The notes beneath the pieces are model-generated. The model saw nothing but the letters and a program-made list of their open reading frames with translations, did no database searches and was not told the DNA's origin. This document shows positions 7,048-13,385 of a stretch of DNA of 36,866 nucleotides, in pieces (position 1 is the first letter of the stretch; each line of letters begins with the position of its first letter). A program made the position numbers and the translations under genes. The stretch comes from a virus (Duplodnaviria > Heunggongvirae > Uroviricota > Caudoviricetes), in the IMG/VR virus record IMGVR_UViG_2724679138_000004; one strand, 5' to 3'.

Positions 7048-8226
7048 TTAATTGCTGTTAACCGAAGTGACCAGATTTGCCAGGTATTTATCGGTAATAC
7101 GCTGGCGCAGGGTCAGGTTTTCGAGAGGAGGCACCGGGGTATAGTCATAGTCGATATACAGTTTTCCGGCCTTGAGGGTTTCCGCATCGTTGGATTCTTC
7201 GCTGAACCAGCAGGTCGCATCCACGATATAGCCGTTTGTTTTCAGCTCACGGAATTTGGCATTGATGCCGTCAACGATGTCGCGAATCAGCGTTGCGGTG
7301 ATGGGCTTGTCCACCGCCCACATGTGCGCCTCAGCCATCGTGTCGGCCAGCACCTGCGCGGTGCGGGTGTAGTTTTCAAAGAGGAACAGCGGGTCATCAG
7401 AGCAGGTACGGTTACCCCAGAATCGGAAACCGTCGCGGCGAATCAGCGTAGTGACACCTGCCTCGTTCAGCAGGTCAGCATCGGTGCCGGACTCCTGCAA
7501 ATCCCAGAATACAGATGCGCTGATGCCGGTAACACCGTTCACCCCGACGTTGGACAGCGTTTTATGCCAGCCCTGATCCTGGTCGATTTTAGCACGCAGA
7601 CCCAGCGCACGGGCGGTGGCGGTGGTACTGGTGACCGTATCCCATGCGAGGAAATCCGGCCAGATGACCATCAGCTCACGCTGGCTGAAATTCTGGCGGT
7701 AGGCTTTCACCTCGGAAATGGTTTTACAGCCCCATGCGCTGATATACCCGAAAGCGCGCAGCTTCTGACAGACTGATGCCAGTGCAACAGCCACCTCTTT
7801 GGTGTCCAGTCCCGGCACACCGAGAATACGCGGTTTAACACCGGTTACCGACTCTGCCGCCAGCAGGGCTTTCAGTCCGGTGTACTGACCGTTTTCGTCG
7901 GTGGTGCCGATGATATTGGAAACGGTCTGCGCAAGTTTCGTTTCTTCGTCTTCGCCGGTGCCGTCTTCCACACGTACAACAACGGTGACCGGTTTTGACT
8001 GGTCAGCGATGGCCTGCAACGACGCCGCCAGCGTGCCTTTTTTACCGGCCTTTGCAATTGCGCTCTGCACATTGGTAATCAGCACCGGTTTATTGAGGGG
8101 AAAGGTTTCCGCATCCGCATCGCTGGCCGTGCAGACCATGCCGACAATGGCAGTGGATACGGTGGAAATGACGCGGGTGCCGTCGTTAATCTCCAGCACC
8201 TGCACGCCGTGATGATAGTCACTCAT
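7048..8226 (-). CDS. FI: Contractile tail sheath protein FI
   Basis: 392 aa; P2 gpFI-like sequence and position upstream of FII. Confidence 0.92.
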   Translation of the reverse strand: MSDYHHGVQVLEINDGTRVISTVSTAIVGMVCTASDADAETFPLNKPVLITNVQSAIAKAGKKGTLAASLQAIADQSKPVTVVVRVEDGTGEDEETKLAQTVSNIIGTTDENGQYTGLKALLAAESVTGVKPRILGVPGLDTKEVAVALASVCQKLRAFGYISAWGCKTISEVKAYRQNFSQRELMVIWPDFLAWDTVTSTTATARALGLRAKIDQDQGWHKTLSNVGVNGVTGISASVFWDLQESGTDADLLNEAGVTTLIRRDGFRFWGNRTCSDDPLFLFENYTRTAQVLADTMAEAHMWAVDKPITATLIRDIVDGINAKFRELKTNGYIVDATCWFSEESNDAETLKAGKLYIDYDYTPVPPLENLTLRQRITDKYLANLVTSVNSN

Positions 8227-8322
8227 CCGTTTAACTCCGTGGTTAATGGGTGCAACTATTTTCTGTTGTGCAGAGCATGAGACGCTATTTGACCTGGCTG
8301 GTCAGGGGATGAAACAACAGAT

Positions 8323-8349
8323 AAAGAAAAGGCGGGCAATTCACCCGCC
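8323..8349 (-). terminator. Rho-independent terminator (minus strand) between the cargo module and FI
   Basis: GGCGGG/CCCGCC stem with 7-nt loop; on the minus strand followed by TTTTCTTT. Confidence 0.5.
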
Positions 8350-8751
8350 AGTCGTGATTTGTACTCACTCATTTTCCGACTGACAATTTACTTAGCCCAA
8401 AAGCTATCAAATCTGACAGTCTGCTTTGAGCGATGAGCGGACGTTAATTTGGGGTTGTACGCCAGAACCGCAGAAATTTCCGTGACGCATAATGTTTGCG
8501 GTTGTCTGCCTGTACGTAAGACCGCCGTCAACCGGACAGTAAAGAAATGGCCGTTTGGAACGAAAAATCACTGACCGCAGCGTCTCACATAGCTGGTACG
8601 GATAAATTCTCACTCACGGCACCATAAACGTACACGTCAGCACATGCCAAACATGCTTCAAAATTCGACTAATTCACTGCGCCAGAAATTTCTGGCGGTT
8701 CCGGTACAGCCCCCCTATATTATGCGAATTGTTAATTAACACTGATCAGCA

Positions 8752-9810
8752 TTATTTTTCCTGTGTATCATCATTCAAATCCGGTGCAGTCCGAAGTACA
8801 TTCGTGAAGTTAAGAAGCATTTTTTTTGTGCCAAAAGTGAACATCTCAGAGATTTCAGATGAAATGCTATCCCAAATAAAAATGATATGCCTCAAATACT
8901 CAACAACTCCAGGCCGGTTCAATGTACCTTCGATAAGATAATGTTCAGGAATACCCTCCATTATTCCAGTCTTTCTTATCCAGAAAAGTCCAACCCTGTT
9001 GGCCGATTCACCACCTGCAAGCACATAACTACGACGTTGATCTGTGTTTGGAATAGAAAGTATTTCAAAAATTAAAGGCACGATCATTTCAAGCCTTACG
9101 AATGGCCTAGGATGTGTACCAACTGGTTCTGTTTGAACCTCATAAAGTTTTTCGCCTTGAAAACGATGTAACATTAATGATATACCACATGTCAAAAAGC
9201 AAATTGCCAATTCGCAATCTTCATTAATGGCAAGTTGTCGAACAATTTCTATTACACACATGTATGTGGAAAAATAATCGGCTGCAAGTTCCGTTGCGTG
9301 CCAAATGGCAGATGCATCGTCATTGTCTGATGATAAATTATTTAAGTGAATTTCAGACATTACATTAATTTCGGAACTATACCTGTTCCTTATAAATAAA
9401 TGGCCCTGAGTTAAGTGTCCTAACTCATGAAAAAAAACCCATGTCAAACCTGCTAGAAAAATGTTTTTAGTGAAATTAGTTTTATCCCACTCATTTCTTA
9501 AAGTGGTAAAGTTGGTTTGCCCATTAAACCACATATCATAAACTTCATCATCTTTACCAGAGTGAACATAATCTACAAAAGCAGCAGCATCATCATATAA
9601 TGATCGGATTAATTTATATGTGATTGATATAGCATGCCTTGGTGGTTCATCACGCTCTGAGTAAACTAAAGCTCTAGCGTTCACAATATCTGTAGTTTCA
9701 AATTGTAAAGCGAGACTGCCATTAATTTCTTTATAGTAATGTTCATTCAAATCTTCTGTAATAGAAGACAAAACACTTGTAGCCCAGTTGTATAGCGCGA
9801 TACTTTCCAT
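8752..9810 (-). CDS. Hypothetical protein with zincin-like HExxH motif (FFHELGHLTQGH); candidate defence cargo in the FI-G (Z/fun) hotspot
   Basis: 352-aa ORF, visibly AT-rich relative to flanking tail genes; HELGH encoded at 9415-9429; acidic residues downstream (HATELAAD) could supply the third zinc ligand. No family assignment possible without search. Confidence 0.75.
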   Translation of the reverse strand: MESIALYNWATSVLSSITEDLNEHYYKEINGSLALQFETTDIVNARALVYSERDEPPRHAISITYKLIRSLYDDAAAFVDYVHSGKDDEVYDMWFNGQTNFTTLRNEWDKTNFTKNIFLAGLTWVFFHELGHLTQGHLFIRNRYSSEINVMSEIHLNNLSSDNDDASAIWHATELAADYFSTYMCVIEIVRQLAINEDCELAICFLTCGISLMLHRFQGEKLYEVQTEPVGTHPRPFVRLEMIVPLIFEILSIPNTDQRRSYVLAGGESANRVGLFWIRKTGIMEGIPEHYLIEGTLNRPGVVEYLRHIIFIWDSISSEISEMFTFGTKKMLLNFTNVLRTAPDLNDDTQEK

Positions 9811-10094
9811 TTGACACCATTAGAAAATTTGTTATTTATTTCTATTTTTTGAAAAATCACTTTTTAAAAAGTGGTCATATGCATAACTGAAAGCTGCGTT
9901 GTCACTGTCAAAATCATTTTCCGTTATGGCTTCCCATCCCCTCAACCACTTGTGCCTAATGCGCCACTTATGGGGTCCGCTTGGAAAACGGAAAATATCC
10001 TACGTTAAGCCTGTTTTTTAAGCAAGCATGACAGGCAGCTTTGAGCGAGGAGCGAACATGTGGTTTTTCAATAGTAACACCCGCTCCTTCCATC

Positions 10095-10415
10095 CTACTG
10101 CGGAGTGCAATCTATAGATAAAATCGTTTTCCGTGACTTAGCTTCTGGAGGGGACATTTCCTCGCTTTCGCTGATATTGAAGCTCCATGCGCCAACGCCT
10201 TTGACTTTCGAAAACAACAATTCACCTTCATAGCCTAGATCGTCAGTGCCAGCGATTATGACCATCCCACTCAACGTTCTCTGGTATGCATTCTCAAAAA
10301 CACGCCCCTCATAATCAATAGTTGCCCGTTCTTTGTCGAAGACAACCGCTTTGTCGCCCTCACAACGCATTACTGACTTGGCTTGTGATACACAGGAAAA
10401 ACCCAGAAGGATCAA
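10095..10415 (-). CDS. Small hypothetical protein, possible Sec signal peptide (…LLILILLGFSCVSQA|KSV)
   Basis: 106-aa ORF with TTG start in the track; no in-frame ATG upstream, so the true start and the signal-peptide reading are uncertain. Confidence 0.4.
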   Translation of the reverse strand: MILLGFSCVSQAKSVMRCEGDKAVVFDKERATIDYEGRVFENAYQRTLSGMVIIAGTDDLGYEGELLFSKVKGVGAWSFNISESEEMSPPEAKSRKTILSIDCTPQ

Positions 10416-10481
10416 TATCAGCAGTCTTTTAATTATTTATCTTCTACATACATAATTAAGGAGTGAAGTGGTCAACAAAAA

Positions 10482-10520
10482 CTGGCCGCATTATAAGATA
10501 TGTTTCAAGAACCACAAACG
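10482..10520 (-). promoter_or_regulatory. Candidate sigma70 promoter for the cargo genes (perfect -10 TATAAT on the minus strand at plus 10490-10495; weak -35 TTTGTG)
   Basis: Hexamers read by eye in the G-cargo intergenic region; 17-nt spacer. Confidence 0.3.
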
Positions 10521-10604
10521 TCAGCTTTTGGCACAGAGCGGACTGTCAGATTAGGCTTTACTCTGTTCTATAGGTATGTAAGCTCACACCAGAGTTCATA
10601 CAAC

Positions 10605-11132
10605 TTATTGCGGCATTTCCGGCCATTCAGGATTTGCAGGAACCACACGACTGACCAGAACACTGTAGCGTTCCCATGCCTCCAGTCGACTGCGCTCCTC
10701 ATCTGTTGCCATATTCAGCCTGACAGCGCGCTCCAGCGGCAAAATCACGGATTCAGCATCTGCTAGAAGTCTGGCTTTCCGATTTTCTGCCTGCTGCTGC
10801 AATTCCTCTGCCGTATAAATGCGTTTAATCACTGTGCCATCCTTAAACATCCAGTTCCCTGAAATGTCCGCCCGTCGGTTAGCAGTAATATCCGCCACTT
10901 CAACAACACTTAATCCATCCGGTCTGATAGCTGTCACATCCTTTTCCACATAGCGGATGATATTATCTTTGTCGTACGCTATTTTTATCGTGTCATCAGC
11001 AAAATACTTTTGTTCTTCGTACCAGTTCTTACCATCTTCTGAAAAAAACCAGACAACATCAAAGTCCTTTGTCAATTGATATTGTTCAACCGTTTTTGGA
11101 TTACCCGCCGTAATATTTTTTAAATGCTGCAT
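10605..11132 (-). CDS. G: Tail fibre assembly chaperone G
   Basis: 175 aa as in P2 gpG, directly downstream of H; N-terminal half is AT-richer than the backbone, typical of host-range cassettes. Confidence 0.88.
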
Positions 11133-11135
11133 AAA

Positions 11136-13385
11136 TTATACCTGCGCCACGTTATACCATGTCCCGTTAATGTATTTCTGCACCGGTCTGTAATATACGC
11201 CACCAATGTTATCGGCAGAGTTTGAGCCGGTATCCTGAACAATAATGCCGGTATATACGCAACCTGACGGAGCCTGATGCGTCCATGTAGTACCATTATT
11301 TGCTGGTTTATATGTAGATGCACCGCCCAGCCGCATGTCTCTCACATAACGTGAATCTGACTCAGCTTTGGTGTATGCACCAACATCTCCCGCTGAGGGT
11401 TTATGAGCAGTTGTATATAGTTGCGCCCATCCAGACCAGTTAGCATCTGTGGTATCTCGTCGGGAGCGAATATATGCCGGAGCATGAGCACCGCTGGTTC
11501 CACTCCAGCCAATAAGTAACTCACCCTCTCCTACAGCGGTTACGCCAGTGAGATGAAGCACATTACCATAGGCTGTTGGGTAGCCATTGTTGTATGCCTC
11601 ATACATCTGAATACCTGGTGTCCCCTTTACGCTCCCACCTAATGCAGTAACACGGTTTCTGGATACCAGTGTATTAATATTTATATCGGCAGAGCCATCA
11701 AATCTGACACCATTAATATTTCTTGCGTTCGCTAACTTAGTTGCTGTTGCAGCATTTCCTGAAAGGCTGGAAATAAATGGATGTGAACAGTAATAACCAC
11801 GTCCATTTTTAAAATCCAGAATAGCCTGTACGTTCGTGCTTTCTGTAGCGGGATTAGTTGCCCCCCACTTATATGTCGTCTGACCGACGACATAATCCTC
11901 TGTCGGAACAATAACCGTTAGCCCTTCCTCTGCAAGAATTTGTACTGGGAAAGCTCTGGCTTCAACATAAAAAACACTACATACATCATCATCTTTCAGG
12001 CTTGTAACAATGGAATGGATTGAACGCTCATTAGTCTGATACGTCCAGAAATAACCTGCCGCATATGAACCACGATCGGTCCAGCCTCCGGGCATAACCA
12101 TGCCATTAAACTCGCAGTTATTCATTACATAATCGCCGTTATAACAACCAGTTGAAATAACGACGCGGGATGCCATTTCTCCTGAAAGGCTGGCAGCACG
12201 GCGAAAGATAACGGGATACCACTTCCCGGCAACGACATTTGCAGGGGCTGCAAACGAATACTTTCGCATTCCCTTTTTCTTATCCACTTCACCTTTGCTG
12301 TAAACATTAATGTTACTCAGGAAGCGTCCTTTATCAGGAATATCCGCACCGTTCTGATCTTTCTGAAGACGTTTTTCAGCATTGTCATAGGCAGACTTCA
12401 CCGCTTTTGGTGTTGCAGCCAGCGTTTCAGAATCACTGTTGGTGGCGCTACTGAGCTGGACAAGACCTTTTCGCGCTGTGGTGGCATCCTGTGCAGTGTA
12501 TTTCCCGTTAGCAAGGTCATACGCTGTCTTAACCGCCTTTGGCGTTGCCGCAAGCGTTTCAGAATCGCTGTTGGTGGCGCTACTGAGCTGGACAAGGCCT
12601 TTTCGCGCGGTGGTGGCGTCCTGTGCAGTGTATTTCCCGTTAGCAAGGTCATATGCTGCTTTTACCGCTTTTGGTGTTGCGGCGAGCGTTTCAGACGTGC
12701 TGTTGGTGGCACTACTGAGCTGGACAAGGCCTTTTCGCGCTGTGGTGGCGTCCTGTGCAGTGTATTTCCCGTTAGCAAGGTCATATGCTGCTTTTACCGC
12801 TTTTGGTGTTGCGGCGAGTGTTTCAGACGTGCTGTTGGTCGCACTGCTTAACTGAGTAAAACCTTTGGCGGTCAGCGAGGCGTCCGGGTGACGTCGTGAC
12901 TGTTCATGTTCTGCAATTTTGTCATCAACGTAATCCTGCGTTGCCATCACCGTTGTGGTGTCAATGGTCAGCGCCACTGAGGCCACACTGCTGACGATGA
13001 TGACCATGCGGCAGGTCTGCGAACGCCCTGAGCCTTCGGCAAGAGCTGGCTTATAACTTTCAGCCATGTTCGCCACGGCAATTAACGTTCCAGCATCATC
13101 GTACAGGCCAAGCTCACGCATCCAGAAACCGCCCACCTCCGGCGGAATAACCAGCTCTGCGATAATATAATTACTGTTTCGTTTGTCCTGGCTGATTTTG
13201 TTCAGCGCATGTCGCCAGACTTCGTGGATAAGCCCGGTCTGTCCGGCATCCGGGACAGGCAATTTACCACCGCCATCCCCGACGGCCATCGTGGTAATGT
13301 TGACCTTCCGCCCTCCCGGCGCGGTTGCCGCTGCCAGCTTTGCTGCACCGGCAGTGGTGATAACGGTTTTAAATTTCGTGCTCAT
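11136..13385 (-). CDS. H: Tail fibre protein H with four tandem 44-aa repeats
   Basis: 749 aa; N-terminus matches P2 gpH (MSTKFKTVITTAGAAKLAAA...); central repeats ...LSSATNSTSETLAATPKAVKAAYD...; divergent C-terminal receptor-binding part. Confidence 0.9.
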   Translation of the reverse strand: MSTKFKTVITTAGAAKLAAATAPGGRKVNITTMAVGDGGGKLPVPDAGQTGLIHEVWRHALNKISQDKRNSNYIIAELVIPPEVGGFWMRELGLYDDAGTLIAVANMAESYKPALAEGSGRSQTCRMVIIVSSVASVALTIDTTTVMATQDYVDDKIAEHEQSRRHPDASLTAKGFTQLSSATNSTSETLAATPKAVKAAYDLANGKYTAQDATTARKGLVQLSSATNSTSETLAATPKAVKAAYDLANGKYTAQDATTARKGLVQLSSATNSDSETLAATPKAVKTAYDLANGKYTAQDATTARKGLVQLSSATNSDSETLAATPKAVKSAYDNAEKRLQKDQNGADIPDKGRFLSNINVYSKGEVDKKKGMRKYSFAAPANVVAGKWYPVIFRRAASLSGEMASRVVISTGCYNGDYVMNNCEFNGMVMPGGWTDRGSYAAGYFWTYQTNERSIHSIVTSLKDDDVCSVFYVEARAFPVQILAEEGLTVIVPTEDYVVGQTTYKWGATNPATESTNVQAILDFKNGRGYYCSHPFISSLSGNAATATKLANARNINGVRFDGSADININTLVSRNRVTALGGSVKGTPGIQMYEAYNNGYPTAYGNVLHLTGVTAVGEGELLIGWSGTSGAHAPAYIRSRRDTTDANWSGWAQLYTTAHKPSAGDVGAYTKAESDSRYVRDMRLGGASTYKPANNGTTWTHQAPSGCVYTGIIVQDTGSNSADNIGGVYYRPVQKYINGTWYNVAQV
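12380..12875. repeat. About four tandem copies of a 132-bp coding repeat inside H (phage tail-fibre repeat)
   Basis: Near-identical 132-nt units visible in the DNA; the antisense ORF 12439-12855 is repetitive for the same reason. Confidence 0.85.

Follow-up and report, generated by a model that had tools for sequence, protein, structure and literature searches.

Putative recombination sites of two spacer classes delimit cargo cassettes in the Z/fun interval of a P2-like prophage

Among the carriers of anti-phage systems in E. coli, P2-like prophages rank with the most important ones, and their hotspots turn over faster than their backbone. The Z/fun locus of P2, which is the interval between the tail sheath gene FI and the tail fibre assembly gene G, is one of the two classical variable regions of these phages and is today viewed as a defence hotspot (PMC9519451; bioRxiv 10.1101/2024.10.15.618418). 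In the literature, the swapping of hotspot contents is treated as recombination of an unknown type and as an open question (PMC9122126, PMC13586616). The closest described elements are the inverted repeats of this same locus. In the GenBank entries of Nilsson et al. 2004 (AJ512685 and AJ512683), the cargo is framed by features labelled "right" and "left" inverted repeat, which are 91 and 113 nt long, and already in its title that paper puts forward site-specific recombination as a link between P2-like phages and pathogenic enterobacteria (Nilsson, Karlsson and Haggard-Ljungquist 2004, Mol Biol Evol 21:1). Here, we describe the FI-G interval of the P2-like prophage represented by the IMG/VR virus record IMGVR_UViG_2724679138_000004, the 36,866 nucleotides of which are referred to below as the window. 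Three copies of a site of about 30 bp are present in this prophage, and all of them are situated between G and FI, as judged from the open reading frames (ORFs) and the RefSeq annotation.

Read from G to FI, the window contains site B, cassette 2 with a 112-aa ORF, site A2, cassette 1 with a Lit-like gene and a transposon-like repeat, and site A1 (Table 1), B being inverted relative to A1 and A2. We consider A1 and A2 to be A-class copies of a duplex recombination site that would delimit cassettes, which could be exchanged site-specifically through a 200-aa tyrosine recombinase acting in trans. On the basis of sequence comparisons, a probability of about 0.7 is assigned to this reading. The outer pair, A1 and B, is already known. 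Base by base, the annotated right repeat maps to 8352-8442 of the window and the left repeat to 10520-10632, and their inner ends are the exact inner ends of A1 and B. Locus and sequences are thus the same, and the two GenBank records annotate the two long repeats only. The cassette arrays, the junction anatomy, the spacer logic and the candidate enzyme appear to be new: no description of internal direct copies, of the 8-8-8 anatomy, of spacer classes, of junctions with swapped arms or of a candidate recombinase was found in the searchable literature, which does not include the text of Nilsson 2004. The motif of the site is printed in no searchable paper, and papers on P2 hotspots, pipolins and serine-recombinase markers are without these sites.

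A first-pass annotation of the window had reported two near-identical repeats in the same orientation, one on each side of the gene for a 352-aa protein. Such repeats do exist. The 28-mers noted, at 8415-8442 and 10030-10057, are identical at 23 of 28 positions (25 of 29 over 8414-8442 and 10029-10057), and they flank the ORF in question. The position proposed for the first copy, about 8411-8440, is off by a few bases. Each copy was said to contain a tandem GAGCGA hexamer, but this is exact (GAGCGA-N-GAGCGA) in the second copy only, the first one reading GAGCGA-T-GAGCGG, and the tandem appearance arises because the A-class spacer abuts one arm of the site. The third, inverted copy had been overlooked, as had the identity of the outer pair with the annotated Z/fun inverted repeats. 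A repetition by chance is ruled out by shuffles and matrix scores. A degenerate pattern of the repeat, for which random recurrence had been raised as a concern, is found at exactly two places in the 36.9 kb and does not turn up in any of 100 dinucleotide shuffles. When scored with a position matrix derived from about 105 related copies, A1, A2 and B reach 47.8, 34.3 and 48.7 bits, respectively; 20 shuffled windows give no more than 9.3 bits, and nothing else is detected in the 36.9 kb. Both arms of A2 are somewhat degenerate.

The site is composed of a 3-nt flank, an 8-bp arm GTCYGCTY, an 8-bp spacer, an 8-bp inverted arm RAGCGGAC and a final RTT (58 + 47 unique copies), and the consensus from 172 unique copies is GTCYGCTY / TGWGCSAR / RAGCGGAC. 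In this consensus, the two arms are inverted copies of one another around a spacer, the classical layout of the core site of a tyrosine recombinase. Two characteristics of such core sites are found here, namely inverted arms with a 6-8-bp spacer and an exchange of arms across a shared spacer at the junctions. Conservation ends sharply after RTT, 3 nt past the inner arm, and this arm is conserved despite the unrelated cargo that adjoins it. The variable positions of the core (4, 8, 16-17, 21 and 25 in the 58 + 47 unique copies) display no 3-nt period and are symmetric about the spacer. The spacers themselves are bimodal, with two class-defining positions: 83 of the 172 copies have A+G (TGAGCGAR, class A) and 72 have T+C (TGTGCCAR, class B), while 17 spacers are mixed.

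The distribution of the sites was studied in a sample of 80 IMG/VR loci encoding the same sheath protein, and sites were counted in the 44 of these in which G and FI are both anchored; loci are designated below by L numbers where they have to be told apart. When these P2-like prophages are compared, along the lines suggested in the first-pass annotation, 85 of 85 sites are located within the FI-G interval (75 kb) and none in the 428 kb outside it. In 32 of the 44 loci a simple B+ A- layout is found, with B 62 nt past the G stop and an inverted A about 215 nt ahead of the FI start. Longer arrays with sites between ORFs exist in five loci (B A A; B A A A; B A / B A; B A A / B A; and an inverted pair of two A-class sites). 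Four other loci (L012, L024, L057 and L074) have an empty G-FI interval of 127-132 nt, in which sites and flanks are missing and the G stop leads directly into the terminator hairpin, reading CAGGCGGGC..GCCCGCCTTTT. Therefore, the whole site-bearing region is an insertion relative to those phages. The cargo between the conserved repeats is variable and unrelated (33 to 36 unique flank/cargo junctions), and it is found in both orientations, with enough space for a promoter of its own. Phage P2 itself carries a B/A pair. Arrays of three to four B...A units were seen in two further IMG/VR stretches (L230:7124-14487 and L232:2242-5313), which are the most integron-like examples encountered; neither FI nor G is present in the stretch analysed. 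In an otherwise identical prophage, a gene for an IS110-family transposase is inserted between G and the Lit-like cassette (L173:3558-4562).

Outside P2 prophages, the cargo of the window recurs in CP4-like islands (alpA ... GTPase ... Ag43) of complete E. coli genomes. The match is limited to 8427-10059, that is, from A1 to A2, in the island of strain CU42ET-1 and to 8427-10543, from A1 to B, in that of strain 167. Both islands keep the sites, so that a loss of the repeat next to the same cargo, which the first-pass annotation had asked about, is not observed there. Cassette 1 is 97% identical in island L003, and cassettes 1 and 2 are 99.4% identical in island L004. In both cases homology begins inside A1; it ends exactly at A2 in L003 and at 10543, in B, in L004. 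Further sites are found between other genes of these islands. On the side of the phage backbone, megablast homology to more than 60 P2-like phages stops at 8445-8450. 

An all-against-all comparison of site-to-site segments revealed whole cassettes common to P2 hotspots and other contexts (Table 1). Five cassettes, including both of those in the window, recur from site to site at 92-100% identity in islands, in a lambdoid prophage and in Erwinia. In every shared pair (five cassettes, two to three contexts each), the cassette-side arm and the spacer are common, while the distal arm is that of the context. Such junctions with swapped arms are what a strand exchange across a common spacer would produce. 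All five cassettes break inside a site and never in the neighbouring sequence. The proposal that the repeats are "recombination or exchange sites for cargo cassettes", one of several made in the first-pass annotation, is therefore strongly supported: homology between unrelated contexts starts and stops inside the sites. The polarity of each cassette with respect to the A and B classes is constant in all contexts, so that nothing points to inversion. In L019, a 352-aa ORF located between sites was considered as a relative of cassette 1 and was rejected, being unrelated at the DNA level. In the island of E. coli Nissle (L086:3279-9028), one site-bounded unit of about 5.7 kb consists of a complete operon for a TonB-dependent receptor and an ABC transporter, and cassettes are therefore not confined to single small defence genes.

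The junction of adjacent units (B, 18 nt, A) is present in 852 of 5426 E. coli genomes. In both junction contexts inspected, the Nissle island and a lambdoid prophage, a 200-aa "site-specific integrase" (for example WP_001305361.1) is encoded inside the array. It has the PF00589 catalytic domain, with R51, K79, H148, R151, H174 and Y183 identifiable in the sequence, and an N-terminal domain is all but missing. The protein is below the cut-off of every NCBIfam family, Xer-like models being the closest, has no sequence match in the PDB and bears generic names only. Its gene is present in 863 of the 5426 E. coli genomes, and relatives of at least 61% identity occur in more than 547 species from several phyla.

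The sites frame this gene at constant distances: the upstream one, of A type, ends about 37 nt before the ATG, and the downstream one, of B type, begins 19 nt past the stop. The far arm of the downstream B-type site is the 3' half of the terminator hairpin of the recombinase gene. Immediately ahead of the ATG, a conserved hairpin (ATCTCC-N9-GGAGAT) takes in the ribosome-binding site. In 13 genomes of Enterobacterales and Alteromonadales (Pectobacterium, Buttiauxella, Pantoea, Phytobacter, Klebsiella, Erwinia, Leclercia, Edaphovirga, Providencia, Rahnella and Pseudidiomarina), the site past the stop is detected in 12 and the one before the ATG in 7, and arrays of units surround them. The gene also occurs inside P2 Z/fun hotspots (L050, and L090 from E. 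coli HS13-1), and in L230 it follows an array of four cassettes. Relatives in Pseudomonas, Burkholderiales and others (61-65% identity) are flanked by a diverged site, GTCCGCTTCTGGCCGG, which has 82 matches in those loci versus 7-15 in shuffles, an enrichment of about seven times. The co-location of gene and sites makes the 200-aa recombinase the most likely candidate for the enzyme acting on them.

The exchange at these sites is most likely catalyzed site-specifically and may be governed by the two spacers, and the following course of events could be imagined. The hotspot is bounded by a B-class site next to G and an inverted A-class site next to FI. As two coupled positions distinguish the A spacer from the B spacer, the pair should neither delete nor invert the cargo. 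Two exchanges with another element that has the same B/A pair could, however, replace the cargo as a whole, as in recombinase-mediated cassette exchange (RMCE). Furthermore, a circular cassette with one A site might integrate into an A site and leave two direct A copies; the direct copies A1 and A2 around the Lit-like cassette would be the outcome of such an integration. Genes for this recombinase are found, with sites on their two sides, in islands, lambdoid prophages, plasmids and a few P2 hotspots; none is present in the window, and for this prophage the enzyme would need to act in trans. In the simplest history, a unit that already contained the 112-aa ORF would first have received the Lit-like cassette at its A site, and the resulting two-cassette unit would then have passed by exchange between the prophage and an island such as that of strain 167.

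Several observations weigh against this reading. The arm swap is also obtainable by a homology-dependent crossover within the 19-22 or so identical bases. One cargo type (L016/L031/L044/L046) has a linked variant distal arm, and therefore some P2-to-P2 swaps are probably ordinary homologous recombination in the flanking genes. The arms of A2 are degenerate, and the clean separation of the spacers may be exaggerated, as the matrix was derived from the same family of copies. The window encodes no recombinase of this family, and only about 16% of the E. coli genomes carry one. The P2-borne copies of the gene (L050, L090) are without the last 12 or so codons and without the downstream site, and they look like decaying passengers. 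The state before insertion, that is, cassette 2 without cassette 1, was not found in the 5426 E. coli genomes, and no biochemical evidence for exchange at these sites was found.

It could also be imagined that the sites are a conserved "boundary sequence", involved in transcription insulation or in the binding of a host protein, and that exchange takes place by homologous or short-homology recombination (RecA, phage Red/RecET-like) using a patch of identity. The identity of about 19-22 bp at shared junctions is near the minimum for homology-dependent exchange, the FI and G flanks provide long homology among P2 phages, a cargo type with a linked variant distal arm exists, and the recombination type of hotspot swapping is left unknown in the literature (PMC9122126, PMC13586616). 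However, neither the 8-8-8 layout and the two discrete spacer classes, kept beside unrelated cargo in several genera, nor the recombinase gene framed by sites at fixed offsets would be explained, and all five cross-context cassettes break inside a site. Moreover, no fold above shuffles is seen for the sites of the window, and the single terminator-like flag is on the antisense strand. Altogether, this explanation seems unlikely. A role as regulator operators, or an origin as leftovers of a duplicated backbone or coding segment without a role in exchange, is far less probable still. Both copies lie in spurious ORFs with the peptide VRSSLKAxC (minus strand VRSSLKA[D/A]C), 3 of the 5 differences are synonymous, and the tandem GAGCGA is suggestive of a binding site; but the variable positions are not 3-periodic and are symmetric about the spacer, and no ORF spans the copies in other loci. 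A coding remnant was rejected, as there is no 3-nt periodicity over about 105 copies and no common ORF. The first-pass annotation had proposed a remnant of duplicated backbone as well as binding sites for a regulator. The former is not supported, the internal copy being without a backbone flank and the motif bounding unrelated cassettes in non-P2 elements; the latter leaves the homology breakpoints, which a regulator site would not predict, unexplained.

Two further explanations were considered. The A...B unit may be a non-autonomous transposon-like element with the sites as terminal inverted repeats, the direct repeat resulting from nested or tandem insertions. Inverted copies do bound the units, whole units recur in different replicons, and a genuine transposon-like repeat adjoins A1. 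Against this, there is no target-site duplication, the outer triplets ACA...TGT being inverted and not direct; units always lie beside another site and not at random targets; the distal arm remains that of the surroundings, and thus the ends are not carried along; and no transposase is associated. A transposon-like nature is accordingly very improbable, slightly more so than an operator or remnant. Least probable of all is template switching during replication at the long inverted repeats of a P2 rolling-circle intermediate, by which the cargo would be looped out and swapped by copy choice. The inverted repeats of 91 and 113 nt annotated in GenBank would suit such a process, but the flanks pair patchily beyond the inner 36 or so nt, and the same sites and cassettes exist in islands, lambdoid prophages and plasmids, which do not replicate in that way.

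Table 1. Features of the window, position of the candidate recombinase gene in other loci, and cassettes shared between P2-like prophages and other contexts
Feature	Position	Strand	Description
FI, tail sheath gene	7048..8226	-	ORF list and RefSeq annotation
Intrinsic terminator of P2 backbone	8322..8349	-	terminator scan
FI-side outer flank, conserved P2 backbone	8352..8415	.	together with 8416-8442 the GenBank "right inverted repeat"; conserved in 36 unique FI-side flanks
Site A1 (first copy in the first-pass annotation)	8416..8445	+	ACA GTCTGCTT TGAGCGAT GAGCGGAC GTT (flank, arm, A-class spacer, arm, flank); border of P2 backbone and cassette 1
MITE-like repeat, 266 bp	8451..8716	.	imperfect terminal inverted repeats of ~30 bp, GGGGTTGTACGCCAGAACCGCAGAAATTTC ... 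GAAATTTCTGGCGGTTCCGGTACAGCCCC
Cassette 1 cargo, 352-aa HExxH protein	8752..9810	-	distant Lit (Peptidase_U49)-like
Site A2 (second copy in the first-pass annotation)	10031..10060	+	ACA GGCAGCTT TGAGCGAG GAGCGAAC ATG; internal A-class site between cassettes 1 and 2
Cassette 2 cargo, 106-112-aa hypothetical ORF	10095..10433	-	ORF list; RefSeq coding sequence in L005
Site B	10517..10546	-	minus-strand reading ACA GTCCGCTC TGTGCCAA AAGCTGAC GTT; B-class spacer; border of cassette 2 and P2 backbone
G-side outer flank, backbone	10547..10632	.	overlaps 3' end of gene G (stop 10605); together with 10520-10546 the GenBank "left inverted repeat"
G, tail fibre assembly gene	10605..11132	-	ORFs and RefSeq
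H, tail fibre gene	11136..13385	-	ORFs and RefSeq
200-aa tyrosine recombinase gene	L086:11126-11728, L087:6424-7026, L088/L089:7001-7603, L090:6983-7567	-	also L091-L170
978-nt cassette	L013 (P2) vs L089 (island)		99.9% over all 978 nt
978-nt cassette	L013 (P2) vs L096 (Erwinia aeris)		92.6%
1911-nt cassette	L038 (P2) vs L087 (lambdoid prophage)		99.1% over all 1911 nt
~411-nt cassette	L003 (island) vs L062 (P2)		93.7% over 381 nt

The 352-aa protein of cassette 1 is a candidate phage-exclusion protease that seems to be distantly Lit-like. Its RefSeq name is "phage exclusion protein Lit family protein", and PADLOC relates it to Lit with E = 1.4e-5, the similarity being local, around HExxH only. 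A precomputed PF10463 match is marked weak. The protein misses the family cut-off, with 17.6 bits versus 274 for the NCBIfam Lit model, and has no Pfam match at 0.01. Relatives of at least 90% identity are encoded in Escherichia, Enterobacter, Klebsiella and Citrobacter, and exact copies were found in the same P2 context only. The ORF of cassette 2 has no Pfam, NCBIfam or PADLOC match, and it was encountered only in company with cassette 1, in nine E. coli genomes. A 27-nt inverted repeat with 81% complementarity (8755-8781 and 10375-10401) has one half at the 3' end of the Lit-like gene and the other in the 5' part of the 112-aa ORF and is kept in L004; it may be due to chance, 14 such pairs being reported in 2.7 kb. 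Outside the hotspot, a unit of about 42 aa (...GLVQLSSATNS[TD]SETLAATPKAVKxAYDLANGKYTAQDATTARK...) is present three to four times in tandem in the protein encoded by the tail fibre gene H.

The stretch 8350-8751 was previously described as non-coding with a normal GC content. It is indeed ORF-poor, and its GC content is about 0.46-0.49 versus 0.30-0.41 in the cargo gene, but for the most part it is an element resembling a miniature inverted-repeat transposable element (MITE). The further suggestion that these 400 or so bp might be a backbone remnant or an RNA element does not hold, as they comprise 64 nt of backbone flank, the 30-bp site and the 266-bp MITE-like repeat, and Rfam is empty. The ends of this repeat start with GGGGTTGTAC; with their GGGG start, they may resemble Tn3-family repeats. 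The element folds as a long hairpin (z = -3.4 for the single-stranded DNA). Copies exist in 395 enterobacterial plasmids, mostly conjugative ones, 164 of them near full length. No target duplication could be defined and no parent transposon identified, and a neighbouring "transposase" annotation is uninformative. The element belongs to cassette 1, which it accompanies into islands.

Other functions were considered for the repeats themselves. The long inverted repeats of 91 and 113 nt were rejected as a functional unit, good pairing being confined to the inner 36 or so nt and patchy beyond; in the FI-side flank, just the last 10 or so nt (AATCTGACA) pair well with the G side. A structured element of single-stranded DNA or RNA was likewise rejected. 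The three sites of the window fold no better than shuffles (z = -1.8, +1.3 and -0.3), and the same applies to the B-A junction of L004 on its two strands (z = -0.7 and 0.0). The B-A junction of L087 has z = -3.3, but forms two separate hairpins, one per site, and no single long attC-like hairpin. Rfam covariance models gave no match at E <= 1 across 8200-10700. An intrinsic terminator was rejected as well: the terminator scan flagged A1 only, on the antisense strand and with a poor T-run, while A2 and B were unflagged.

With a defined 30-bp site, junctions at nucleotide level and a named candidate enzyme, the question of hotspot exchange becomes testable. If site-specific exchange by the 200-aa recombinase is confirmed, it would account for the presence of identical defence cassettes in different genera, in phages as well as in islands and plasmids. 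The sites would then be a sequence signature for the boundaries of cassettes, and hence for complete new defence systems, and a compact recombinase with two orthogonal sites would be available for genome engineering. More tentatively, with odds that we put somewhat below even, one could speculate about an integron-like, so far undescribed cassette system with duplex sites. In such a system, two heterospecific 30-bp sites would let the 200-aa recombinase, which has relatives of at least 61% identity in Proteobacteria and beyond, carry cassettes for defence and other functions between P2-like phages, lambdoid prophages, islands and plasmids. This would represent a natural form of RMCE and might be the missing mechanism of Z/fun swapping.

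As in integrons, a tyrosine recombinase gene lies beside an array of cassettes, each bounded by a conserved recombination site, and the cassettes are common to several replicons and often anti-phage. The site adjacent to the recombinase gene has one degenerate arm, as is the case for attI. An array adjacent to the integrase gene is found in L087, L091-L097 and L230; the window has no integrase and hence no such array. In contrast to integron integrases, the recombinase has 200 aa and is without the IntI-specific insertion (15.9 bits with TIGR02249 versus a cut-off of 265). The sites are of a 30-bp duplex type and are not attC hairpins of 57-141 nt, in agreement with the window sites folding like shuffles, and there are two inverted site classes with cargo in either orientation. 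The Xer-dependent pdif modules of Acinetobacter plasmids are similar in that modules in many replicons are flanked by inverted arm-spacer-arm sites. However, pdif sites are 28-bp XerC/XerD sites with an 11-6-11 layout that rely on the Xer proteins of the host, whereas an 8-bp spacer and a dedicated small recombinase candidate are found here. The dif consensus, GGTGCGCATAA-N6-TTATGTTAAAT, has no resemblance to the present site.

The small tyrosine invertases FimB and FimE have about the same size of 200 aa and, similarly, a catalytic domain only, without a separate core-binding domain. Nevertheless, the recombinase scores 18-25 bits with their models versus cut-offs of 221-222, and the shared cassettes keep their polarity, with no evidence of inversion. 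The exchange logic is best compared with RMCE at heterospecific lox or FRT sites, in which the same arms and incompatible 8-bp spacers flank a cassette, so that excision and inversion are blocked and replacement by a double crossover is permitted. RMCE is a laboratory design with Cre or Flp, whereas the bimodality of the spacers and the anatomy of the junctions in the Z/fun interval suggest that a natural counterpart exists.

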